This document shows positions 11,191-63,342 of a stretch of 64,000 nt of DNA, in pieces. The DNA is taken from positions 103,394 through 167,393 of the forward strand of contig CAVXXD010000013.1 in assembly GCA_963765625.1 (NCBI GenBank). Direction: 5' to 3'. The notes under the pieces were generated by a model that saw only the letters and a program-made list of their open reading frames with translations, had not been told where the DNA came from and did no database searches. Every line of letters begins with the position of its first letter. Within the stretch, counting starts at the first letter, position 1. This DNA is from an uncultured bacterium (lineage in GTDB: Bacteria; Actinomycetota; Geothermincolia; Geothermincolales; Geothermincolaceae). Position numbers and translations under genes: made by a program.

Positions 11191-14100
11191 ATGCATCACC
11201 CGTCATCTTTCCGCAAACCGTTGTTCCTTGTACTGACCTTCTTGCTGCTATGCGCGCAACTGTTCGGGGGATTGCTCCCCGCGGTGGGCGCTCCCAGTGT
11301 GATCGCCACCGTCGGGGTGAGCGGTTACCCCATCGACGTGGCCGTCAACTCCAGCACCAACCTCTACTACGTCGCCAGAACCTCCGCCGGCAGCGTCAAC
11401 GTGATGAACGGCGCGACCAACGCGGTGACAGCGACGGTGGCGGTGGGTTCCGCTCCCTATGCAGTCGAGGTGAACGAATCGACCAACCGCATCTACTCGG
11501 CGAATTATAGCAGCAACAACGTCTCGGTCATCGACGGAGCCACCAACACGGTGATAACGACCGTCGGCGCGGGCACGGCCCCTTATGCCCTTGACGTGAA
11601 CCCCACCACCAACATGATCTACGTAGTCAATATGAACAGTGATAACGTTTCGGTGATAAACGGCGCGACCAATACGGTCACGGCAACCATCGGGGTGGGG
11701 GACCGCCCCACCGGCGTCGCCGTCAACAGCGGCACCAACCTGGTCTACGTGGCCAATGCCAACAGCAACACCGTTTCGGTGATAAACGGCGCGACCAACA
11801 CGGTCACAGCGACCATACCGGTCGGCGACGGGCCCGAAGCCATCGACGTCAACGCCACTACCAACCGCATCTACGTGGCCAACCAATGGCAATACACCGT
11901 TTCCGTCATCGAGGGGGGCTCCAACGCGGTGGTGGCGACGGTGTCCCTCGGCAACATGAACAACCAGGGACTGACCATAAACCCGGTCACCAACCGCGTC
12001 TACGTGTCGAGCTTCTACAACGGCGTGGTCAACGTGATCGATGCCTCCGGCAACACGGTCACGGCGAACTTCGGCGTGGGCAGCGGTCCCTGGGGCGTCG
12101 GCGTCAATCCCTCCACCAGCCGCATCTATATCGGCAACTCCAACGGCGACACCGTTTCGGTAGTGTATGACCCTTACGCCATCACCGCCTCGGCCGGGCC
12201 GGGGGGCTCCATCTCCCCTTCCGGTACGATCGGCGTGAACCCCGGCGGAAGCCAGGCCTTCACCATCTCCCCGGACACCGGCTACCATATCTCCCAGGTG
12301 TTTGCTGACGGTGTCTACCAGGGGGCCCCGGCTTCTTTCAACTTCTCCAACGTCCATGCCGATCACACCATCAGCGCGCAGTTCGCCGTCAATACCTACA
12401 CCGTAAGCGCCTCGGTGTCGGGCGGGCACGGCAGCGTCCAGGGGACGCAGAGCGTCAACTACAACGAGAGCGCCGGCGTGGCCATCAGTCCCGGATGCCG
12501 GCTACCACATCGCCTCCATAACCGACAACGGCTCGAGCCCGAGCCGTGTCCAACCCCTACGTGATCAACAACGTCACCGCCGCCCACAACGTGGTGGTTA
12601 CCTTCGCCCCGGACACCTTCACACTGTCGGCCTCGGCAGGTCCGGGAGGGTCCATCTCGCCGGCCGGGGCCACCGTGGTCGATTATGGGGGATCGCAGTC
12701 CTACACCATCACGCCGCTCGGCGGACGGCACATAGCCGACGTGCTGGTGGACGGGATCAGCGTGGGAGCGGTAGCTTCTTATAACTTCACCAGCGTGGCC
12801 GCCTCTCATACCATCAGCGCCTCTTTCGCCCTCGATTCCTTGACCATCACCGCGTCGGCGGGTTCGGGAGGGTCCATCTCGCCGGCCGGCCCGGTGGCCG
12901 TGGACTACGGCGCCGACAAAACCTTCAGCATCAACCCGGAGGCCCACTACCACGTGGCCGACGTGCTGGTGGACGGGGCAAGTGTAGGGGCGATGGGTTC
13001 CTACACCTTCGCCGGGGTGGCCGCCGCCCACACCATCAGCGCCTCCTTCGCCCTCGACACCTACGCCATCTACACCTTCGTCTCGGGATCGGGGGAGGCC
13101 ACGGGGGGAGGCGCCTGCGTGCACGGGGCCACCGTAGACCTCACCGCCACCCCGGATACCGGCTGGCACTTTGTAAACTGGACCGAGAACGGCACGGTAG
13201 TCTCTACCGACGCTTCCTACTCCTTCACCGCTTCCTCGAGCCGTATCCTGGTGGCTTGCTTCGCCGTCGACACTCATACCATCACCGCCACCGTTGACGG
13301 CAGCGGTACCACGGAGGGCGCGGGCACCTACGATTACGGCTCCACCGCCACCCTCACCGCCACACCGGCCGAAAACCGGCACTTCACCGGCTGGACCGAG
13401 GGAGGGGTGGAGGTCTCCACCAGTGCCTCCTATTCCTTCACCGTCACCGGCGACCGCGACCTGACCGCCCACTTCGCCGTCGATACCTTCACCGTCAACG
13501 CCTCGGTCTTCGGGGGGCACGGCTCGGTCGAACCGGCTTCCCAGAGCGTCCCCATCGGCGGGATCGCAGGTATTGACCTGGTCCCCGACCCCGGGTATCA
13601 CGCCTCCTATATCACCGACAACGGGGAGACGAAGCCGGCAACAGACCCTTACGTCATTGAAGACGTGAGCGAGGAACACAACGTCTTCGTTTTCTTCGAA
13701 GGCGACAGCGACGCCTGGTACCTGGCGGAGGGATGCACCGCGGGTGGGGTTGAGACCTGGGTGATGGTGGAGAACGTCAACGATTTTCCCGTCTCCCTGG
13801 GCCTCGTCTTCTCGACGCCCCAGGGGGTCTTCATACCCATCGAGATCGAGGGGACGATGCTGGCCCCCGGGTCTCGCGTCTCCTTCAACGTAGGCAATTT
13901 CGTCGAATCCTACCAGGTTTCCACGATGATCCGGGCCAGCGGCGGTGACGTGGTCTGTGAGCGCGCCATGTACGGCAACGAGCGCACCTGGGCTACGGAT
14001 TCCATAGGCACCCGGACTCCCGCTTCCACCTGGTACCTGGCGGAAGGAAGCACCGGCGAGGGCTTCGAGACCTGGGTGCTGGTGCAGAACCCGGGAGACG

Positions 14101-14955
14101 CGGAGGTCACCGTGGACTTAACCCTGACGACCTCGTCCGGTGAGTTGAAGCCCGAGGGGCTGCAGGGTGTGAGCATCCCCGCCGTCTCGCGCCGTTCCTT
14201 CAACCTGAACGACTTCGTCACCGACTACGACGTCTCCACCGTGGTCAGCGCCTCCGGCCCGGTGGTGGCGGAGCGCTCCATGTACGGCAACGACCGCGCC
14301 TGGGGCACCTGCTCCATCGGCACCGCTGCTCCCGCCGCTACCTGGTACCTGGCCGAGGGTTCCACCGGCGAGGGCTTCGAGACCTGGGTGCTGGTGCAGA
14401 ACCCGGGAGACGCGGCGGTCACCGTGGACCTGACCCTGACGACCTCGTCCGGTGAGCTGAAGCCCGAGGGGTTGCAGGACGTGGTGCTCCCGGCCGGGAC
14501 GCGCCGTTCCTTCAACCTGAACGACTTCGTCACCGACTACGACGTCTCCACCGTGGTCAGCGCCTCCGGCCCGGTGGTGGCGGAGCGCTCCATGTACGGC
14601 AACGACCGCGCCTGGGGCACCTGACTCCATCGGCACCGCTGCTCCCGCCGCTACCTGGTACCTGGCCGAGGGTTCCACCGGCGAGGGCTTCGAGACCTGG
14701 GTGCTGGTGCAGAACCCCGGGGATACGGAAGTGAACGTGGACCTGACCTTCTTTACGTCGACGGGACCGGTGGAAGGCCCGCAAGATGTTGCCGTCCCCG
14801 CCGGCTACCGCAAATCCTTCCGGCTCAACGATTTCGTCACCGACTACGATATCTCCACCGTGGTCTCTTCCACCGGAGGGGACGTGGTGGTGGAGCGCTC
14901 TATGTACGGGAACGGCAGGCTATGGGCCACCTGCTCCATAGGGTATGCCCCGTAG
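11191..14955 (+). pseudogene. secreted YVTN-family beta-propeller repeat protein with Ig-like repeats and four C-terminal ~105-aa WYLAEG modules. Interrupted by three 1-nt frameshifts (about 12495, 12540, 14622), possibly assembly errors
   Basis: Signal peptide; about 10 repeats of NxxTNxxYVANxxSNTVSVIDGATNTV (YVTN propeller). Central repeats SASAGPGGSISPAG...GYH. Reading frames 11191-12564, 12546-14624 and 14701-14955 join into one protein once the single-nucleotide indels are corrected. The last two modules are near-identical at nucleotide level. Confidence 0.6.
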
Positions 14956-14964
14956 GTGTGAGCC

Positions 14965-22229: not shown

Positions 22230-22737
22230 ATTTCACCTCCTTCGGTCTAAACGGCCCCCGGTCCCGCCGGGAGCAGAAGGCAATCCCGGTTCGAACATTT
22301 TCGAACCCGCTAGTTTTTTCGAACCGTGTAAATATAGCACAGTGGGAAAGCTGCGTAAACCGGGGTAACTCAATAAGAGCTCCGTCCCTCCTGGAGAGAA
22401 AGCCTCCCTGGGTACCTCCTTAGTACTTAGGCCACTCCACACCAAGAAGACGTGCGGGGCTTGGGGTATGCGAATGTTCGATAAATCATTCGATGGTACA
22501 GCTCGTTACCCGGAGGGTTTCAAATCCCAAATATGGGATAAGTATAAAGGAGCAGCTAAAAGGGGGGCACCGTTCCGTGGAACTGGAAGTAAACGAGCCT
22601 GGAGGAGGCTGCCGGTTTGCTGCAAGAGTATGCGCTCGCGCTGGTCTACGGCGAGAGAAGCCCGCCGCCTTTTAACGCCCATGTCCATCATGCCGCAAAC
22701 AGGGGAGGCAAAACCTAACCTGACAGGAGGAAAGGAC

Positions 22738-24027
22738 ATGTTCAGACGGAATACATCCATGCTGGCCATCTTGGTCATGCTGGCCAGCATAGCCTTAATG
22801 ATAACGCCCGCGGCGGCGGCGACCGGCCCGGGTTACGCCTGGGTGCGGGTGGCTCACGCCTCCCCCGACGCCCCGGCGGTGGACGTATGGGTGGACGGAG
22901 CAGTGGCGGTAAGCGACCTGGCCTTTGGTGAGGTCACCAGCTATCTGCTGGTACCCGCCGGAGCATACAACATCAAGGTCACACCTACCGGGCTCACCAC
23001 CCCGGTGGTCATCGACGCCGACTTGACCTTCGACAAGGGCACAGCCTACACCGTCGCCGCCACGGATTACCTGGCCTCGATCACCCCCATGGTCTACATC
23101 GACGACAATTCCTGGCCCGACCCGGGCGAGGCTAACGCCAATTTCATCCACCTCTCCCCCGACGCCCCAGCGGTGGACGTGGGAGTTGTGGGAGGCGCCA
23201 ACCTTTTTACCGACATAGAGTTCCAGGAGGCCTCGACCTACGTCGGCGTCCCCTCGGGGATTTACGACCTCGAGGTCAAGCTGGCCGGGACCTCCACGGT
23301 GGTCCTGACCCTCAACGACGTGGACCTGATGGCGGGAACGGTCTACACCGTCTTCGCCGAAGGCCTGGCCGGCGGGGGGCCGCCTCCACTGCAGGCGGTA
23401 TTCGCGTCCTTCGCCCCCAAGGGCACGGTGTGGTACCTGGCCGAGGGGTGCACCGAGAGCGATTTCGAGACCTTCATCCTGGTGCAGAACCCCAATTCCA
23501 CCGCCACCACGGTTGGCTTGACCTTCATGACCGACACCGGGGCGGTGACCGGGCCCAGCGCGACCCTGCCACCCTTCTCGCGCCAGACCTGGAAGGCCAA
23601 CGATTACGTCACCAACTGGAACGTCTCCACCCTGGTGGACGCGAACCAGATGGTGGTGGCGGAGCGCTCTATGTATGGGAACAACCGAACCTGGGGACAC
23701 GACTCTATCGGGGTCACCGCGCCCGCCATGCTATGGTACCTGGCTGAGGGTTCCACCCAGGGCGGCTTCGAGACCTTCATCCTGGTGCAGAACCCTGGAG
23801 CGGTAGAGGCCAACGTGGAGTTGACCTTCATGACCGAGGCCGGGCAGGTGGCCGGGCCGTCCATGAAAATACCGCCCCATACGCGCTATACCTGGAAGGC
23901 CAACGACTTCGTCACCAACTGGAACGTCTCCACCATGGTTGAGTCGGATGAGTTAGTCATCGCCGAGCGGGCCATGTACGGGGACAACCGCACCTGGGCT
24001 CACGATTCCATCGGATACGCTCCTTAG
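22738..24027 (+). CDS. secreted DUF4397-domain protein with two C-terminal ~105-aa WYLAEG modules
   Basis: Start moved to MFRRN (22738, GGAGGA RBS) with a signal peptide. Two DUF4397-like halves (VRVAHASPDAPAVDVWVDG / IHLSPDAPAVDVGVVGG) followed by two WYLAEG...QNP...ERSMYG modules; ends SIGYAP like the YVTN gene. Confidence 0.6.
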   Translation: MFRRNTSMLAILVMLASIALMITPAAAATGPGYAWVRVAHASPDAPAVDVWVDGAVAVSDLAFGEVTSYLLVPAGAYNIKVTPTGLTTPVVIDADLTFDKGTAYTVAATDYLASITPMVYIDDNSWPDPGEANANFIHLSPDAPAVDVGVVGGANLFTDIEFQEASTYVGVPSGIYDLEVKLAGTSTVVLTLNDVDLMAGTVYTVFAEGLAGGGPPPLQAVFASFAPKGTVWYLAEGCTESDFETFILVQNPNSTATTVGLTFMTDTGAVTGPSATLPPFSRQTWKANDYVTNWNVSTLVDANQMVVAERSMYGNNRTWGHDSIGVTAPAMLWYLAEGSTQGGFETFILVQNPGAVEANVELTFMTEAGQVAGPSMKIPPHTRYTWKANDFVTNWNVSTMVESDELVIAERAMYGDNRTWAHDSIGYAP

Positions 24028-24274: not shown

Positions 24275-25061
24275 ATGGGCAAACGTCTGGTGGACCTGAG
24301 CATCAGTATCGAGAACGACCTGCCATCCGACCCCCCCATGATGATTCCCAAGGTGACCTACGTCGACCACGCCATGGGGGCGCCGTCCATGACCGAGTTC
24401 TTCCCCGGCATCGACCCGGCGCGCGACCTGCCCGGCGGCGTGGGGTGGGCCCTGGAGTTCGTCACGCTCTCCACCCACTCCGGCACCCACCTGGACGCGC
24501 CCTGGCACTACCACCCCACCATGGACAACGGGGCGCCTTCTTTGACCATCGACCAGGTACCGCTGGAGTGGTGCATGGGCGACGGGGTGGTGCTGGACTT
24601 CCGGGGGTTCGGGGACGGCTACCTGGTCAGCGCGGCGGACATGGAAGCGGCTTTCGAGAAGATGGAGTACCAGCTCAAGCCGGGGGACATCGTGCTGGTG
24701 AATCACCGGCGCCTCCGCCTGGTGGGGCAAGCCGGAGTATCTCCTCAAGGGGTGCGGCATGGGCCGGGAAGCCACCCTGTGGCTGACCGAGCGGGGGGTG
24801 CACGTGGTGGGGACCGACGCCTGGAGCTGGGACCGGCCCCTGCCGCTGATCGCGAAGGAGTACGAGGAGTCGCACGACGCTTCGATAATCTGGGAGGGCC
24901 ACTTCGCCGGCATCGAGAAGGGTTATTGCCACATCGAGAAGCTCACCAACCTGAAGACCCTGCCATCCACCGGCTTCACCTTCTTCTGCTTCCCGGTGAA
25001 GGTCAAGGGCGCCAGTGCCGGCTGGATCCGCGCGGTGGCGCTGGTGGACGAGGACGACTGA
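24275..25061 (+). CDS. cyclase family protein (kynurenine formamidase-like), one frameshift near 24700
   Basis: HSGTHLDAPWHY motif; the C-terminal half (WLTERGVHVVGTDAWSWD) is in the 24759 frame; a 1-nt indel at about 24700 joins them. Confidence 0.6.
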
Positions 25062-25108
25062 GGATCAAGGGCTGAGGTTGGAGTGCTGAGAAGGTTTAGG
25101 GGGGATGC

Positions 25109-41175: not shown

Positions 41176-42478
41176 CTACGCTTTGTTCTCGTAGAAGACG
41201 CCCGTCCAGATGCCCATGGCCACGGCCAGCTCCTGGTGGTCCTTGGCGTACTCCTCCAGCGTTATGCCCTGCATGGTGGCGTCGATGGCCTGACGGAAGG
41301 CTTTAGCCCCCGCCGCCGGTCCCATGGGGTGGGCGTGCACGCCGCCGCCCGAGCCGATCATGATGTCCGGCCCCAGGTCGGCCACGCAGGTGGGTACCAT
41401 CTGCGGGGTGATGCCGCCCGAGGGCATGGGCATGGTCGGCTTGAGGTCGTGCATGGGATAGGTCATGGCGTCGGCACACGGCAGGAAGCGTTCTTTCAAG
41501 AAGGGGGCCTTGCCGTAGGGGGCGGGAAATACCACCACGTCCGCCCCGGCCAGACGGGGCAGCTTGCCCAGCACCAGGTGGGAGGACATTCCCGAGTAAT
41601 GCGATTCGTACAACGCCCCGGCACAGTCCATGTGAGCGAGGATGGGCACGTTAACCTCGTCGTCCTCGGCCAGCGCCTGCAGGGCCGGCAGGCCCACCGC
41701 CAGGTAGTTGACCATGATGGCGTTGGCGCCGGCGGCCACGGCGCGCCGGGCGGTATCGAACATCTTGGGCAGGTTGTCGGAGACGTTGACCGTATACAGA
41801 CGTGCGCTCGCCCGTCTCCTCGAACACCCGCTTCTCCAGGGCCATGTACGCCTTGACCCTGTCCTCCACCCGGTTGAACATCATGTCCGCGATAAGCTCG
41901 TCGTCCTTGACCACGTCGCAGCCGCCGCGAGCCGCCTCGTAGAAGAGGTCGGCGCCGATCTGGCAGGGGTATCCGGTGCAGGGCTTGGTCATGTTGTTGA
42001 GCAGGGGGCGGCCCTCCACTCCCAGCGCCTTGTAGATACCCTCGATGCCGAACTTGGGCCCGACGAAGCCATCGGTGAACACCTTGGGGAAGTAGATGTC
42101 CAGCAGCTTGATCTTGCCGCCCATGGAGATGTTGCCCAGCACCGCGGTGAGCAGCATGGGGATCTGGTTTTCGATGTTGCGGAAAGGGAAGGCGATCTGG
42201 ATAACGTAAGAACGCTCGTCGACCTCCTTGGGCACCTCGAACTCGTACTGGGGCACCTCGTAGACGCCGATGACCTTGGCCACGTGGGCCGCCCGCACCT
42301 CGGCGGTCTCACCCGGCACCGGGGTCCAGGTGCCGGTGGACTGCTCCACCGCCAGGAAGGGGCCGATGTAGTAGGCCAGCATCTCCCGGGGCATGGCCCC
42401 GTAATAGGTGGCCACGATGTGGTCCCCGTAGTCGATGCCCTCGGGCAGGGCCCGCGGTTCCGCCGCGAAGTTCTTCAT
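41176..42478 (-). CDS. RuBisCO large-subunit-like protein (form IV RLP or divergent form III), one frameshift near 41775
   Basis: EQSTGTWTPVP (RuBisCO ESSTGTW), TKP (K175), GGCDVVKDDE (GGLDFTKDDE with K201), MPMPSGGI (PVASGGIH). The HR pair is changed to HM(D), suggesting an RLP. Frames 41651-42478 and 41176-41763 join after a 1-nt indel. Confidence 0.6.
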
Positions 42479-42506
42479 CTCACTTACCTCCTTGTTTTTC
42501 AGCCGG

Positions 42507-44042
42507 TCAGGCCGGCTCGTTGATCTTCCTGTAGATGCCTGAAAGCTTCCGGTAGGACTTCCGGAAGGCGTCGTACAACTCGTCGTAAATCTGCCGGTTG
42601 CCCCGGTCCGGCTCGAAGGTGCGGCGCACCTTGACCACTTCTTTTAAATCCTTGTAATCGCGGTAGATATTCAGGGCCACCGCCACGGCCAGAGCGCAGC
42701 CCACCGCGCCCGCCTCCTGGGCGTCCTCCACCGCCTCGATGCGGTGGCCGGTGACGTCGGCGAAGATCTGCATCCAGGCGTCGGAGCGGGCGCCGCCGCC
42801 GATGGCCCGCACGGTGGGGCAGGGGTAGCCGGCGCTGCCCACCGCTTCCAGCAGCCAGCGGCTGTTCATGGCCACGCCCTCGTAGACAGCGCGCAGCATG
42901 TCCTCGCGGGTGTGCTCCAGACTGACGTTGAGAAAGGCGCCGCGCAGGGTGGTGTCGGTTACCGGGGAGCGCTCGCCGAACATCCACGGGGTAAAGATGA
43001 GCTTGCGCGAGCCCGCCGGCACTTGATCGATCACCTTGTCCAGAACGGCGAAGATCTCCATCTCCTTCTCGGCCTGGTCCCACTCCTCCTTGCGGCCCAG
43101 CTGCTCGGCGAACCACTTGAGGCAGGCGCCGGCCGTCTCCGTCTCCCCAATCATTAAAAAAGAAGAAGGGTCGGCCGAGGCGATGGAGGCGATGCCGTTC
43201 TTGACCAAGCTCTTGGGTTTGGCCACGCTGATGCAGAGCCAGCCCGAGGTGCCGATGCTGATGTGGGCGTCACCCTCGCCCAGGGCCCCCGAACCGGTGG
43301 CGGCGGCGGGAACGTCGCCCATGCCCCCGATCACCGGCAAGCCGGGGTGCAGGCCCATGGCCTTAGCCGCGTCGTCGTTGAGCACCCCCACCACTTCGAT
43401 GGACTTCTTCACCGGGGGGAGCTTGTCCAGGGGGATGCGCAATACCCGGCTGAGCAGGTGGGACCAGTCGCGGGTCTTGTTGTCCAGCAGGCCGGTGGCG
43501 GCGGCGTTGGTCTGGTCGATGATGATGTTGCCGGTGGAGCGGTAGACCAGGTAGCCGTTGACGTCGAGGATGGCTTTCGCCCTTTCGTAGAACTGCGGCT
43601 CTTCTTCTTTTAACCACATGATCTTGCAGATGACGTCTTTCCCGGAAGGGACGGCGCCGGCTATACGCGCCACTATCTTCTCCCCGCCCATGTGCTTGAC
43701 CAGGCGGCAGGCCTGTTCGTCGGCGCGGGAGTCGATCCAGATGATGGCCGGGCGCAGGGGCAGGCCCTTGTCGTCGATGGGCAGCACCCCCAGCATCTGG
43801 GTGGCGTAGCCGATGCCCAGCACCTCCCGGGGGTCGATCCCGGTTTCCTCCACCAGGCGGCGGGTGGACTCGGTCACCGCTCTCCACCAGTCCTCCGGGT
43901 CCTGCTCGGCCCAGGCGGGACGGCAGTAGTCGACGCAGTAGGGCTCGAAGCTGTAAGAGATTATCTTGCCCTCCAGGTCGGTGAGGACGGCCTTGCTGCC
44001 GCCCGTCCCCACGTCGTGGCTGATGATGTACTTACCCCCCAT
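42507..44042 (-). CDS. FGGY-family carbohydrate kinase (xylulokinase-like)
   Basis: HDVGTGGSKAVL N-terminal motif and FGGY C-terminal domain; 511 aa. Confidence 0.75.
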   Translation of the reverse strand: MGGKYIISHDVGTGGSKAVLTDLEGKIISYSFEPYCVDYCRPAWAEQDPEDWWRAVTESTRRLVEETGIDPREVLGIGYATQMLGVLPIDDKGLPLRPAIIWIDSRADEQACRLVKHMGGEKIVARIAGAVPSGKDVICKIMWLKEEEPQFYERAKAILDVNGYLVYRSTGNIIIDQTNAAATGLLDNKTRDWSHLLSRVLRIPLDKLPPVKKSIEVVGVLNDDAAKAMGLHPGLPVIGGMGDVPAAATGSGALGEGDAHISIGTSGWLCISVAKPKSLVKNGIASIASADPSSFLMIGETETAGACLKWFAEQLGRKEEWDQAEKEMEIFAVLDKVIDQVPAGSRKLIFTPWMFGERSPVTDTTLRGAFLNVSLEHTREDMLRAVYEGVAMNSRWLLEAVGSAGYPCPTVRAIGGGARSDAWMQIFADVTGHRIEAVEDAQEAGAVGCALAVAVALNIYRDYKDLKEVVKVRRTFEPDRGNRQIYDELYDAFRKSYRKLSGIYRKINEPA

Positions 44043-45702: not shown

Positions 45703-47422
45703 ATGGATTCTGAATTTCTGGAGGAGAACGAATCTGTGCCGGAACAGAGCTCTCAAGCCGAGAGCAAAAGAACATTTTGGGGCCGCCTGAAACAATATTT
45801 CAGCCGGCTGCATCATGGCGGGCTCGTTTTTGCGCTCATCTTTTTCTGCTTCTCGATGCTGCCTTCGCTCCTTCCCAGGCCGTGGTTTTTCCAGGGGCTG
45901 GTCAGTGGTATCAGCCTGGTTATCGGTTATGGCATAGGCGTTCTATTGTGCAAGACGGCCAGCTGGTTGTCACAACTCGAGCTGCCTGAGAAATTCTCAT
46001 ACTACGGCTGGAGATCATTCCTGGTGATCGGCCCCATCGTCACTATCCTCTTCTCTTACTGGGGATCCGTCTGGCAGAAGCAGGTTCACGAGCTGGTCGG
46101 GATGACCTCTCACCATTCACACCTACATGCTCCTGGCCCTTGTCCTGACAATGGTCACGGCGCTCTTGCTGCTCGGTATCGGCCGTAGCATCCGCCGGCT
46201 CGGCAGATGGATCATAGGCTTGCTCGACAGGATCCTGCCCCGGAGGATCAGTGTGGCGGCCGGTGTTCTCATCCTCATCCTGTTGCTCTGGTGGATCTAC
46301 AGCGGGATATTCGTGAACTTCTTCGAAACCACGTCCGATTATTTATATAGGAACCACAACAAGACGACGCCGGAAGGTGTCAGTCAGCCGACCTCTCCCT
46401 TACGCTCCGGAAGTCCCGATTCGCTGGTCACATGGGATACCATCGGTTATCAAGGCCAGGCTTTCGTAGGCAAGGGCCCAAGCAAGGAACAGATCAGCGA
46501 CTTTACCGGGCGGGAAGCAGAAGAACCCATCCGCATCTACGTGGGGTTGAATACGGCGCCAACGCCGGCCGACCGCGCAGCCATCGTCATTCAGGAAATG
46601 GAACGCACCAATGCTTTCGAGAGGGATGTGCTGATACTGGCAACACCAACCGGTACGGGTTGGCTGGAACGGCAGACGGTCGACGCCGTCGAGTACCTGC
46701 ACGACGGCGACACGGCGATAGTGACGCAGCAATACTCATACCTGCCGAGCTGGATCTCTTTCCTGGTCGACAAGGAGGATGCTCGTGCCTCCGGCAGAGC
46801 GCTGTTCGACGCGCTATTCCCGGTGTGGTTCAGCCTGCCCGAAGAGACGAGGCCCAAGCTGATCGCCTATGGATTGAGCCTCGGGTCTTTCGGCGGCCAG
46901 GCGGCATACAGCGGCGTAAACGACATGCGGCTATCCCTGGATGGTGCCCTGTTCGTGGGAACCCCCAACGATACCGAGCTATGGCGCGACATCACCGATA
47001 ACCGGGACCCCGGTTCCCCGGAATGGTTGCCCGTGTACGGCAATGGCACAGCCGTTCGATTTGCCGCAACCAACGACGACATCAATGAAAACCAGGAAAG
47101 CTGGCAACAGCCTCGCATACTGTATTTGCAGCATGCTTCCGATGCGGTCGTATGGTTCAGCTTCGACCTGTGGTTCAGGAAGCCCGACTGGCTTCGTGAG
47201 CAGCGCGGCCCGGACGTGTCCCCAACCATGCGATGGTATCCGTTTGTGACCTTCTTTCAGGTAGCGGTCGATCAAGCCTTAGCCGCCGCCGTGCCTAACG
47301 GCCATGGCCATAATTACTCCAATGCCATTGTTGCAGCCTGGCAGGCTGTCGTGCCGGCAGACGCATCGTTATGGCAAGAAGACGATATTGTCCGGCTGCA
47401 GGAGTACATAGACAGCTACTAG
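45703..47422 (+). CDS. Abhydrolase_9-family membrane alpha/beta hydrolase, one frameshift near 46105
   Basis: N-terminal TM domain (45703 frame) followed by the catalytic domain (46127 frame). GLSLGSFGG nucleophile elbow; architecture of PF15420 + PF10081. Confidence 0.55.
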
Positions 47423-56569: not shown

Positions 56570-57324
56570 TCAGGAGGCTCTAGCGGCCTTCCTCTGCCGC
56601 ATGGCCTCGAAGAGCAGCACGGCGGAAGCGGCGCCGACGTTCAGAGAAGGGATCTTGCCGTACGTGGGGATGCGCACCAGCAGGTCGCAGTGTTCCTGCA
56701 CCAGGCGGGAGATGCCGCGGTGTTCCGCCCCCATCACCAGGGCCATCGAGCCGGTGAAGTCCGCCTCGTAGCATGTCTGTTCGGCCTCGGCCGCCGCGCC
56801 CACCACCCAGAAACCGGCCTGCTTCAGCTCTTCGATAACCATGGTCAGGTTGGGCACGGTGCAGATATTCATGTGCTCCAGCGCACCCGAGGCCACGTGG
56901 GCCACGGTGGGGGTCACCGGCGCGGCGCGGTGGCGGGGGAGGATGATGGCGTAGACCCCGGCAACCTCGGCGGTGCGGATGATGCCGCCCAGGTTCTGGG
57001 GATCGGTGACGCCGTCCAGCAGCAGCAACAGGGGCTTCTCCTCCTCTTGCGCCATGTTCTCCATGAGCTTGCGGAAGCCGATGTAGCGGAAGGGCTCCAC
57101 CCGCAGGATGACGCCCTGGTTGTTCTCGGTCTTGGCCAGGCGGTCCAGTTCTTCGCGGGGCATGTTGAAGACCGAGCACCCTGTTGCGCCGGGCCAGGCT
57201 TGGTGATCTCCGCCATGGACCGGTCTTCTTTCAGGGTCTTGGAAAGAAGCAGCTCGTAGGCGGCACGGGGGCCCCTCAAAGCCTCCAGTACTGAGTTCTT
57301 GCCTTCGATCTGTTCGTACTTCAT
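56570..57324 (-). CDS. rlmB: 23S rRNA (guanosine-2'-O-)-methyltransferase RlmB (SpoU/TrmH family), one frameshift near 57180
   Basis: SpoU motifs (LLLLDGVTDPQNLGGIIRTAEV, LVMGAEHRGIS, IPTYGKIPSLNVGAASAVLLFE) in the 56570 frame; the N-terminal substrate-binding part (MKYEQIEGKNSVLEAL) is in the 56914 frame. Confidence 0.7.
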
Positions 57325-57374
57325 GGAGACAATGATAGCACAGCGGCGCTGCCGTTCGGTGGGGCAGTCGAGGG

Positions 57375-58209
57375 TCAGTTGATGTTGAAGCGGTCGTTGA
57401 TGTTCTGCTCCAGGCGGAAGGCTTCTTTTAGTTCGTCGGAGCACTTGTCGCCGCAGGTGATGACGATGAGCCTCTTCTCCCCGGGGTCGTCGGGGTTTTC
57501 CAGCGAAGTGAAGATGGCCAGGATGGTGCGGTTGACCGCGGGAAGGTGCAGGGGGACGATCAACCCTTCCTCGCCGTGGAACTCGAAGCCGGGCTTGAGG
57601 TTGAGGCGGCTCCAGCAGACCCGGTCACCGGGGAGGAGCTCGCAGTTGCACCAGGCGCAGTAGAAGAGGGCTTCTTCTTCGGCTTCCTCCTCGTCGTCCC
57701 AGCCCTCCCAGTCCTCCAGGTCGTCGAGCTCGTCGGTGAAATCCTCCTCGCTGGAGAATCCCTGCTCGATCAGCCAGGCGCGGATCAGCCCGCAGTCACG
57801 GGGCTCGATGTAGACGGCATCTTCTTCAGCGTCCGGTGCTCCGCTCGTTCAGCTCGTCGTCAGCCGTGTCGGCAGGGACGCAGGTGATGTCGCATTCGCC
57901 GCATTCCGCGCAGACGTTGTAATGGCCGCATTCCAGGTCGGGGGTGATGATGGGGGCGCAGCACTCGATGCACCACATACCGCCGCAGGTTTTGCACAGG
58001 CCTACCGCGGGGTTGTCCAGGTCCTCCACTCCGGTCAGGTCCATGGTGAACTCGCTGCCGCAGTGGACACACGATCCCACCCACATCTCGGCCAGGAAGA
58101 CGCCTTCGTCGTCCAGGGGCTCCCGCATGGCCTGACGCAGCCTCACCTTGGTGAGGTCGTCGAGTTCCCGCCATACGGAGTGGGTTGATTCGGGATCTAT
58201 GTCGGGCAT
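57375..58209 (-). CDS. hypothetical cysteine-rich, acidic protein, one frameshift near 57835
   Basis: Multiple CxxC pairs (CVHCG, CKTCGG, CIECC, CAECGEC, CAWCNC, CGDKC), acidic linker DDLEDWEGWDDEEEAEEE. Two reading frames join after a 1-nt indel. Confidence 0.4.
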
Positions 58210-60684: not shown

Positions 60685-60736
60685 GACCGGGCGGGAACCT
60701 TCGGAGCATGTTCCCGTCCAGTCTTTTTCTTCTTTT
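60685..60736. terminator. terminator hairpin between convergent PurO-like and PD40 genes
   Basis: GACCGGGCGGGAAC ... GTTCCCGTCCAGTC stem (two G-U wobbles) followed by TTTTTCTTCTTTT. Confidence 0.55.
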
Positions 60737-63342
60737 CAGGGCATGTACCCCACCACGTCGTGCCCCCCGGTCCAGGCCCCGCGGAAGTTGAAGTACATGG
60801 GGCGCTCCACGATCACCGGTTGGTCGGAGGCCAGGCCGGCGCAGAGGGAGAGGCCGGAACCCGCGTCGGTGTTGACGTTGACGGTGGCGCGGGAGTTGGC
60901 CGCCACGGTGAAAGCGTCCTTGACGATGGGGGCGCCGCCCTCGGGGTAATATACGATCTCCACGCTGGCCGCGGTGGGTCCGGGGTTCTGGATGCAGAGC
61001 CACTCCTCGAAACCGTCCCCGGTGTAGCCCTCGGCGAAGAACCACTCGGTGGCCTGGGCCGTAGCCCCGATGACGCAGTGGCCCCCGGTCCAGTCCCAGG
61101 AAGCCGTACCCGTGTAGTAGAAATACATGGGGCGTTCGGCCAGAAAGTCGGAGGCCGAAGAGAGGTGGACACTGACGTCCTGATCAGTGCCTACCACGTC
61201 GGGAACGTATACGGTTACGCGGGTGTTGGCCGGGATCTCGTAATAATCGGTAACCGGGGTGCCCGAACCGAGCTGGTAGACGGCATCGACGGTGATAGCG
61301 GAGCTGCCCGGATTCTGCAGGGTCAGCCACTCCTCGAAACCGTCCCCGGTGTAGCCCTCGGCGAAGTAGTAATCCTTTGAAAGGGTGGGCACTCCCATCA
61401 CGCAGTGACCACCGGTCCAGCCCCAGTAGGCCGTTCCCTGGTAGCTGAAGTACATAGGCCTCTCGGCTACCACCGGGACGTCGGAGGTGAGCGCCAGGGA
61501 GGTCTGGTAGGACACGCCCCCCAGCAGGTCGTTGGCCTTGAAAGTGGCACGGGAGTGGGCGGGTACACCGAAGTCGCCCTCCGGCTCTATCAGCCCGGCT
61601 TCCTGGGTCTGAAAGTGGAACTTGAGCTTGGCCGGGTCATCCCCCGGGTTGAGCACGCAGATCCACTCGTCGAAGCCCGGGCCGGTGTAGCCCTCGGCGA
61701 AGTACCAGGTCTCCGAGGTGGAGGTAGCCCCCACGGCGTCGTGGCCCCCGGTCCAGCTCTCTCCCGCCCCGGTGTAGTCGAAGTACATGGGGCGCTCGGC
61801 CACGAAAGGGGAAGCGGCAGTGCACTGGATGGAGACGTTGCGGTCCGCTCCCACCTCGGCGTTGACGTCGGCGGTGAAGCGGGACAGCGCCGGGACGGTG
61901 TAGGTCGTCGGCATGCGAGGTACCGTCGGCGAAGAGGTAGGTGACGCCCACCGCCACTTCGGTATCGCCCGGGTTGCCCAGGCAGAGGTATTCCTGGAAG
62001 CCGGGGCCGGTGTAGCCCTCGGCGAAGTAGAAGGTGAAGCCGGGCGAGGCCAGCTCTTTGCGGAAGACCTGCATAACGGTGGTGGCATATCCCAGGTTGG
62101 TGGCATCCGACGCGAAAGAGACGTACCTGGCGTCGGGAGTCATGTCGGGATTCTCACTCCAGTCGTTTCCCGAGGTACCGGAGGCATCGGATGAACACGA
62201 TGATGATCTCGCCGGTGTCCATGTCCTTGCAGGTAGACCTGGCGGTGGGGGTCGCTGCCGGGCACCAGGTTTTGGAGAAGGAATCGAAGGCCACGCACTG
62301 CCCCGTGGACCGGAGATGGAGGCGCTTACGCTGTTGAGGTTGCCCTTGATGCCCGGTTTCGTCGCAGGAAACCAGGGCGACCTCGCCGGTTTCCAGGTCC
62401 TTGCGAAAGATCTGGGTGCCGTCGGAGCCCGGCACCAGGTTGGAGGAGGAAGATTGAAAGACCACGAACCTGCCGTCGGCCGTGATGCCCGCGGGATATG
62501 AGTTCGGGTTGCCCATGTTGTCGCCGGTATCACCGGAGACCAGCAGGACTTCCCCGGTCTGAAGGTCCTTGCGGTAGTCCTGCCAGTAGGAACTGGACCC
62601 GTATCCAAGGTTGTCGGCGATGGATTGAAAGGCCACGTACCTCGCGTCGGGGGTAAGCCGCGGATTTTGCGAAGGCCACGCACCGACGACCCCCGAAGCG
62701 TTGGTGGAACAAATCGTTACGGTGCCGGTGTCCATGTCCTTGAGGAAAACCTGGATCTGGGTAGTGCCCGGAGTCACGAGGTTGGTGGCCCTGGAGTCGA
62801 AGGCTACGTACCTGCCGTCGGCGGAGGGGGAAGGAGCGGATTGAGAGTCGTCGTTCCCCTGGGTGCCGGAGGAGTCGCAGGAACAGAGCTTCACTTCCCC
62901 GGTGTCCATATCCTTGCGGTAGACATGGTACTTGCCGTTGTCGGCCCCGGCCACCAGGTTGGTCGACGGGCTGTAGAAGAAGACGTATCTGCCGTCGGCG
63001 GACATGTCAGGCATACTGCTGGCGGAATTGCCCAGGGTACCGGTGGAATCGCAGGAGACAACGGCTATCGCGCCGGTCTGGAGGTCCTTGCGGCAGATAT
63101 TAGTGAAGGTCGAACCCGGGATGAGGTTGCCCGCGGAGGTCTGAAAAGCGACATATCTGCCGTCGTCCGATATACGGGATATCCAGCTCATGGCGTCGCC
63201 TTGTACGCCCGAGGCGGTGCAGGAGGCGAGCACGACGTCGCCCTCCGCCGCCTGACGCCCCGGAAACCCCCAGGGCCGGCAAGGCCAGCGCCAGTATGCA
63301 ACAGATGAGCATCAATCGCATCAGTGAAGATGTTTTCTTCAT
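60736..63342 (-). pseudogene. secreted PD40/TolB-like beta-propeller protein with four C-terminal ~105-aa W[YF]FAEGYTG modules. Interrupted by about six frameshifts (about 61912, 62160-62350, 63240), possibly assembly errors
   Basis: Signal peptide (MKKTSSLMRLMLICCILALALPALG in the 63100-63342 frame). PD40 repeats (SADGRYVAF.S.ATNLV...DTG...VS). Four modules (W[YF]FAEGYTG.GF.E[WY]L...NPG...AERPMYF) spread over three reading frames; ends HDVVGYMP. Confidence 0.5.

Follow-up and report, generated by a model that had tools for sequence, protein, structure and literature searches.

Near-identical DUF5719 modules with a mosaic pattern of identity, and probable consensus frame breaks, in a secreted surface-protein gene of an uncultured actinobacterium

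The region described here occupies positions 11,191 to 14,964 of a 64,000-nucleotide (nt) stretch of DNA, hereafter the window, from contig CAVXXD010000013.1 (assembly GCA_963765625.1) of an uncultured actinobacterium of the Geothermincolaceae. It holds a gene for a secreted surface protein, which is divided in the deposited sequence among three open reading frames (ORFs) and which ends in four tandem modules of the DUF5719 family; these modules are the C-terminal tetrad of a secreted and probably cell-envelope-associated protein. Two of the modules are nearly identical, and a single extra base breaks the reading frame within one of them. The features of the gene are as follows.

11191..14955, forward strand: secreted surface-protein gene; ORFs 11191-12564, 12546-14624 and 14701-14955 read as one
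12487..12492, forward strand: first +1 frame break; A at 12487 or one C of CCC at 12490-12492, exact base ambiguous
12530..12546, forward strand: second +1 frame break, exact position ambiguous
13713..14027, forward strand: DUF5719 module 1; match of the module hidden Markov model (HMM) at 13713-14024, 63% nt identity to modules 2 and 3
14028..14339, forward strand: DUF5719 module 2, from the module HMM and repeat comparison
14340..14652, forward strand: DUF5719 module 3, with an extra A, from the module HMM and repeat comparison
14624, forward strand: the extra A (third +1 frame break), relative to the module-2 copy (CACCTGCTCC vs CACCTGACTCC)
14653..14955, forward strand: DUF5719 module 4 (codons to 14952) and stop codon, in the frame of ORF 14701-14955

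The three ORFs can be assigned to one gene, since a homologue from a related metagenome-assembled genome (MAG), here called L001, aligns through all of them in order. L001, encoded on the NODE_-named contig CAZGWK010000019.1, is an uninterrupted protein of 1118 amino acids (aa) with the same signal peptide, propeller, B-repeats and four modules; it is not syntenic with the window, and was therefore taken as the closest homologue of the same architecture, not as a positional orthologue. When its protein sequence was compared with the window by tblastn, the matches ran through frame 1 at 11191-12492 (67% identity), frame 2 at 12491-12556, frame 3 at 12543-14621, and frame 1 again up to 14952. 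At the first break, the frame-1 high-scoring segment pair ends at 12492 and that in frame 2 starts at 12491, and the peptide VPDAGYHIASITDNG is readable in frame 2 only; at the second, the frame-2 segment (12491-12556) overlaps the frame-3 segment that starts at 12543. Removal of one base at each of the three sites yields an open frame of 1253 codons without a stop. The repaired 1253-aa protein consists of a signal peptide, a YVTN/YncE-like beta-propeller, about seven InlB-B-repeats (Flg_new_2) and the four DUF5719 modules, and it is matched by the Pfam families PF21783 (propeller), PF18998 (B-repeats) and PF18986 (DUF5719). PF18986 scored 109.3 bits over three matched stretches, against a curated gathering cut-off of 26.2; this model has 319 positions and is about three modules long, the module unit being about 104 aa. 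Furthermore, all 15 invariant DUF5719 columns and the nearly invariant ones are present in the repaired protein, and the conserved motifs WYLAEG, ETW.L.QNP, R and ER.MY occur in its tandem modules.

Tandem Repeats Finder delimited an array at 13959-14865 with a period of 312 nt, 2.9 copies and 85-90% matches, the module starts being placed at 13714, 14029, 14341 and 14654 (spacings of 315, 312 and 313 nt). Modules 2 and 3 are 94% identical at the nucleotide level, and modules 3 and 4 are 75% identical. A base-by-base comparison of module copy 2 with module copy 3 resolves this likeness into a mosaic, all on the forward strand.

14029-14041, forward strand: left end of copies 2 and 3, 0/13 differences
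14042-14050, paired with 14354-14362, forward strand: silent patch, 5/9 nt differ, all synonymous
14051-14166, paired with 14363-14478, forward strand: putative older converted tract, 5/116 differences
14167-14187, forward strand: variable patch of module 2 (GVSIPAVS), 10/21 nt differ
14479-14499, forward strand: variable patch of module 3 (DVVLPAGT), partner of 14167-14187
14188-14404, forward strand: exact duplicate, copy 1, 0/217 differences; second half of module 2 and first 64 nt of module 3
14500-14717, forward strand: exact duplicate, copy 2, 218 nt with the extra A; second half of module 3 and first 64 nt of module 4

Both copies of the silent patch encode AEGS, the Ser codon being AGC or TCC; at this point module 2 is similar to module 1, and module 3 is identical to module 4, so that the patch marks the left edge of the region that would have been converted. 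Four of the five differences in the tract 14051-14166 are synonymous and the fifth exchanges Glu and Ala, while within the exact duplicate the extra A at 14624 is the sole difference. In 100,000 random permutations of the 20 differences, neither a 217-nt identical run nor ten differences within a 21-nt window appeared, which excludes chance as the source of the mosaic. A preliminary description of this DNA had reported the near-identity of modules 2 and 3 and the two peptides at their central patch, GVSIPAVSRR and DVVLPAGTRR, and was accurate in both. Its period of 315 bp does not hold for these two modules, which repeat at 312 nt; the central patch that it described as the single variable one is accompanied by the silent patch; and the start of module 4 does repeat exactly, over 64 nt instead of the estimated 70 or so.

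When the same module positions are compared between the window and L001, identities are 75%, 76% and 68%. The repeats are thus more alike within the genome than their counterparts are across genomes, which argues for concerted evolution. The exact tract and its diverged neighbour differ significantly in their number of differences (0/217 vs 5/116; Fisher test, p = 0.005), and as tracts of unequal age they call for at least two transfer events. We propose that two or more intragenic gene-conversion or unequal-recombination events of different age would have homogenised modules 2 and 3 together with the beginning of module 4. A recent event would have produced the exact tract, 14188-14404 = 14500-14717, and an older one the tracts 14051-14166 and 14363-14478, which have since diverged by 4%; the 21-nt hairpin-coding patch and the 9-nt silent patch would have escaped conversion and kept their old divergence, and the number of modules would have stayed at four throughout. 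Both the process, gene conversion, and the direction of transfer are what we infer from this pattern. Tentatively, 14188-14404 may have been the donor copy; the module end encoded by the exact block, RAWGTCSIGT.APA, resembles that of module 2 in L001. Homogenisation of this kind is seen elsewhere in the family, several proteins having all four modules 93-100% identical, or one pair 97% identical. In GCA_936416865.1 (L023, 1650-2850), 4.0 copies at 99% nt identity without indels lie in an intact 665-aa ORF, and in GCA_034188985.1 (L022, 2266-2922), modules 2 and 3 are 97% identical in nucleotide sequence, again in an intact ORF. Since both of these ORFs are intact, homogenisation evidently recurs without frameshifts.

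A search with the four-module region retrieved 1586 proteins at E <= 1e-10, the named homologues coming from MAGs labelled Actinomycetota, Candidatus Geothermincolia, Anoxymicrobiaceae or Anoxymicrobium. In these homologues the module block is fused to M23 peptidase, amidase_3, IPT/TIG, CAP, S8 peptidase, beta-lactamase-like and other partners; a literature search found no paper naming the DUF5719 family. According to the module HMM, exactly four modules are present in 115 of the 122 best homologues, and for positions 1 to 4 the best match lies at the same module position in 83, 67, 78 and 69 of these 115. That the best matches are mostly position-specific indicates that the tetrad is old. The recent repeat expansion that the preliminary description had raised does not agree with these results, as four modules are found in the 115 homologues and in L001, and modules mostly group by position. 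Instead, existing modules have been partly overwritten by one another with no change in their number.

AlphaFold2, run with 110 sequences, modelled modules 1-3 as read from the window with a predicted local distance difference test score (pLDDT) of 97.5 and a predicted template modelling score (pTM) of 0.92, and the four repaired modules as one compact body with a pLDDT of 97.6 and a pTM of 0.94; the latter value indicates a fixed mutual packing of the modelled modules. [quoted passage not shown] At the sequence level, the matches of the family profile to the PDB are marginal (ASRT, E = 0.08; TM1070, E = 0.42); Pfam ASRT (PF07100) reaches 27.7 bits on the paralogue 60736-62139 (cut-off 25), and some homologues carry it as a precomputed annotation. 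ASRT and TM1070 are homotetramers. We infer from the models that the four modules in one chain may mimic the ASRT homotetramer, and a structure of four ASRT-fold units predicts a fixed count of four. Together, the family norm of four, the compact AlphaFold2 body and the homotetrameric relatives make the copy number of four very probably right. It has been reported that secreted ASRAH modules form "dyads and tetrads", are often fused to amidases and are predicted sugar binders (de Souza, Iyer & Aravind 2009, PMC2739507). By analogy, the tetrad may bind a cell-envelope glycan and thereby anchor or target the protein there. Two further DUF5719 genes lie in the window. On the forward strand, the dyad gene 22468-24027 is an intact 519-aa ORF with only two DUF5719 modules (23431-24018); on the reverse strand, the second tetrad gene, 63233-60736, encodes PD40-like repeats and four DUF5719 modules (60745-62035).

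With the extra A at 14624, a TGA stop arises in frame at 14622-14624, where ORF 12546-14624 ends. Exactly these products, the truncated P0003 and the 84-aa P0004 that follows it, are encoded on a 238-kb contig of the public record, so the base belongs to the deposited sequence. The 1-nt insertion of the preliminary description, given there at about 14622, is therefore present; its placement exactly at a repeat boundary does not stand, since module 4 begins 29 nt further on and the base falls in the final strand of module 3, midway along the exact 218-nt copy. Two more +1 breaks of the gene, near 12487 and 12530-12546, were absent from that description. Over the whole window, at least 14 frame breaks were counted, 12 of the 14 being +1, i.e. 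a net one-base insertion (binomial p ~0.013). Apart from the two tetrad genes, they include the following.

24275-25075, forward strand: cyclase (PF04199) with a break near 24700; profile positions 1-102 and 100-142 in adjacent frames
41176-42643, reverse strand: RuBisCO large-chain-like gene with a +1 break near 41800; Pfam N-terminal domain and catalytic domain positions 1-83, then the rest to 299
45703-47422, forward strand: gene of an Abhydrolase_9 protein with a break near 46110-46190; N-terminal domain positions 3-86 and 89-208
56570-57427, reverse strand: SpoU-type methylase with two breaks near 57200; the Pfam profile continues in the next frame

The cyclase, Abhydrolase_9 and SpoU-type genes, like the RuBisCO-like gene, are broken by +1 shifts. 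The second tetrad gene changes frame six times (at about 62342, 62306, 62271, 62229, 62195 and 61909), five of these breaks falling within 150 nt; its PD40-like repeat unit reads perfectly through them, and the cluster indicates a very poor local consensus. The insertion bias, this tight cluster in the paralogue and the lack of other damage in the gene favour consensus error over mutation. A related case is found in contig CAWFDJ010000029.1 (L010, 413-1635) of MFD04716.bin.2.264, from a nanopore MAG series, in which four modules are 97% identical in DNA with 1% indels, and the DUF5719 array and neighbouring genes are split into many short ORFs in the same pattern as in the window. In addition, several short protein-database fragments on long contigs end in frame-shifted tails after QNPG. 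Gene fragmentation and pseudogenisation driven by indels are a documented artefact of long-read assemblies (PMC12007338, PMC9262707). To judge by the sequence, the extra A is most likely a consensus error of an indel-prone, probably long-read, assembly, as the preliminary description had allowed; with at least 14 breaks in the window, 12 of 14 of them +1, and an intact repaired ORF, this is the best account of it. The real gene is probably intact, and the extra A is most probably unrelated to the repeat structure. As a speculation, a mixture of reads with TGC (Cys) and with GAC (Asp, the family consensus) could give TGAC in a column-wise consensus. Three further searches were uninformative: the 75-aa product of the exact repeat had no homologue match above 91% identity, the matches of a 271-aa query over the two upstream breaks were swamped by B-repeat proteins, and an exact-pattern scan of Joint Genome Institute (JGI) metagenomes for the site, with or without the extra base, gave no match.

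Taken jointly, intragenic conversion of a fixed DUF5719 tetrad, with old patches retained and with frame breaks that are consensus errors, is in our judgement the likely explanation of the region. Several points weigh against it. A single sequence fits gene conversion and an unequal crossing-over that restored four copies alike. The pseudo-tetramer leans on a high pTM of a model, not on inspected coordinates, and the proposed glycan binding draws solely on published inference. The extra A and the copy number were read from the assembled sequence, not from reads, and the insertion at 14624 lies outside a homopolymer, which is not the commonest context of nanopore errors. Finally, the gene has three breaks where about 0.33 would be expected (Poisson p ~0.005), the latter figure being the minimum break rate outside the two tetrad genes, as the census elsewhere is incomplete; this density could mean real decay of surface genes, and it also fits polishing trouble in repeats or in strain-variable genes.

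The decay of surface genes leads to the explanation that survives best after consensus error, namely a real and recently inactivated pseudogene, in which the A at 14624 and the two upstream bases are true mutations. The truncated products are encoded in the public record, the two DUF5719 tetrad genes have more breaks than the minimum rate elsewhere would give, and surface-protein genes are frequently lost. On the other hand, the repaired ORF is otherwise undamaged: its 1253 codons hold no stop, the invariant residues are kept, and the repaired modules are modelled with a pLDDT of 97.6. Ordinary conserved genes (RuBisCO-like, SpoU, cyclase, hydrolase) are broken as well, and the paralogue has five breaks inside 150 nt. 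Furthermore, bacterial pseudogenes are biased to deletions, and 12 of the 14 breaks here are +1, opposite to that bias. We thus regard inactivation as improbable, with consensus error preferred for all three sites.

The variable patch, for its part, might have arisen if a whole module had recently been duplicated or fully homogenised and the patch had then been diversified by positive selection or local mutation. The differences are indeed clustered (10 in 21 nt vs 5 in 333 nt, p = 1e-10), the amino acid is changed in five of the seven patch codons, and the patch falls in the most variable part of the module, its columns ranking 8th, 3rd and 6th of 105 in variability in the DUF5719 family alignment. 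Yet the codons of the patch are replaced at two and three bases, one of them at all three (AGC vs GTG), and the flanks are of unequal age (5/116 vs 0/217); the second patch is purely synonymous, which protein-level selection cannot explain. Both variants of the patch occur in other organisms, the motif QGV.[IVL]PA in 13 modules of 12 other proteins and [QKN]D[VILM].[IVL]PA in 13 modules of 11 other proteins, with KDVIIPAGTRR present in one of the homologues (P0037). No recurrent patch at these columns was seen in other homogenised family members, and no further copy or donor of either patch was found within the 64-kb window. The codon replacements, the presence of both variants in other organisms and the unequal age of the flanks (Fisher p = 0.005) speak against the localised diversification proposed in the preliminary description, to which we give only a small chance; from sequence comparison, the patch is better explained as an old divergence left uncovered by conversion, with which the variability of its columns across the family also agrees. 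That description had also suggested locating the patch on a structural model. In the AlphaFold2 model of three modules, residues 154-156 of the patch make up a short beta-strand, after which a turn leads to the invariant Arg161. It is conceivable, though rather unlikely, that the patch before this Arg sets ligand specificity, selection keeping the modules distinct there while conversion erases their surroundings.

The third alternative holds that the repeat structure itself was created by the assembly, which would have joined two strain alleles of one module in tandem or shortened a longer array, and that the true number of modules is not four. The assembly is clearly error-prone, and short-read contigs of relatives often end inside such arrays (L009, L014, L016, L018-L021); from the latter it would seem that modules of near-identical sequence are widespread in this lineage and regularly interrupt its assemblies. 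The start of a 1582-nt Logan contig (run ERR15459707) likewise lies at about 14693, among the final 25 nt of the exact repeat, and fits a k-mer assembler meeting a repeat there, which is weak evidence. This contig (about 14693-16274), which begins downstream of the break at 14624, is the only other public contig found with an identical DapF protein, the product of the neighbouring dapF gene. Against the artefact, L001 and 115 of 122 homologues have four modules, AlphaFold2 confidently models the four as a compact body (pTM 0.94), the silent patch and the five scattered bases fit neighbouring modules, not alleles, and long reads easily span an array of 1.2 kb. The collapse, or a differing true copy number, considered in the preliminary description thus finds no support in a family whose norm is four and in a compact four-module model, and we hold an artefact of this sort to be very improbable, with the tetrad itself taken as real.

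It could also be supposed that the break at 14624 is a programmed +1 frameshift of the RF2 (prfB) type at ACC-UGA-C, by which Asp would be read (WGT-D-SIG). The site does have an in-frame UGA followed by C (ACC TGA C, 14619-14625) with a G-rich TGGGG just upstream, and if one base is skipped the next codon is GAC, for Asp, which is the consensus of the family at this column (WGHDSIG). However, the P-site codon is ACC, not the slippery CUU, and its +1 codon, CCU, is mismatched at the first position; the G-run encodes a conserved Trp-Gly and is shared by module 2, which is unbroken; the break was seen in no homologue, L001 and the 115 four-module homologues being uninterrupted; the two upstream breaks lack such a context; and many other breaks occur across the window. 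If it were true, an RF2-like slip at 14624 would give the full-length protein, and the complete four-module anchor would be expressed conditionally. We consider such recoding hardly credible, and the role of the patch in ligand specificity more likely than it. Two other accounts of the site were rejected: selenocysteine at the TGA 14622-14624, as the downstream frame would be nonsense, and a phase-variable contingency locus, as the context CCTG-A-CTCC has no homopolymer or repeat tract. Lastly, a diversity-generating retroelement that hypermutates the patch, the two modules serving as template and variable repeat, would suit a pair of near-identical repeats whose differences cluster in a short block, yet it was rejected and can practically be discounted, as A stands in either copy at only 2 of the 10 differing patch positions, a six-frame scan of the 64 kb (a motif scan only) gave one isolated YIDD match and no reverse-transcriptase-like ORF, and neither patch has another copy in the window.

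The near-identity first noticed at this locus is therefore real but ordinary, being that of partly homogenised modules in a known domain family (DUF5719, of the ASRT-fold superfamily), and the findings on the tetrad would not surprise a specialist. In practical terms, ORFs 11191-12564, 12546-14624 and 14701-14955 should be annotated as one secreted protein of about 1253 aa, and pseudogene calls on this contig require read-level confirmation of each frame break. The gene also provides a worked example of the DUF5719 tetrad, whose module is unstudied and common in Geothermincolia-like actinobacteria, its partners there being peptidoglycan hydrolases, proteases and adhesin-like domains. Repeated homogenisation of the four ASRT-fold units would be expected if one chain imitates a homotetramer.

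Among known systems, the ASRAH superfamily shares with the present protein the ASRT/TM1070 beta-sandwich fold, found here in each module. As described for it (PMC2739507), it also shares the secretion of the proteins, the arrangement of modules as a tetrad (here) or a dyad (gene 22468-24027), and the fusion of homologues to peptidoglycan amidases and other envelope enzymes. It differs in that the sequence match of the modules to ASRT is marginal (E = 0.08), in that the ASRT signature SHEshChhN is replaced here by GFETWVLVQNP, and in that the N-terminal partner, a YVTN propeller with B-repeats, is not among the published architectures consulted. The frame breaks resemble long-read indel artefacts in that they are scattered single-base breaks in otherwise intact genes, with local clusters and a strong insertion bias (PMC12007338, PMC9262707); they differ in that the break at 14624 is outside a homopolymer, and the assembly itself is only probably long-read. 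With Pfam DUF5719, the protein agrees in its score above the curated cut-off and in the conserved motifs; the 319-position model, on the other hand, describes neither the 104-aa unit nor the four-fold organisation. The tandem repeats of bacterial surface proteins, e.g. the streptococcal alpha-C/Rib proteins, undergo concerted evolution by intragenic recombination or gene conversion. The DUF5719 tetrad is similar to them in its greater likeness within the gene than across genomes, its mosaic tracts with sharp edges and the recurrence of the pattern across the family; unlike theirs, its copy number is not variable but fixed at four, presumably owing to the packing of its modules into a single body.

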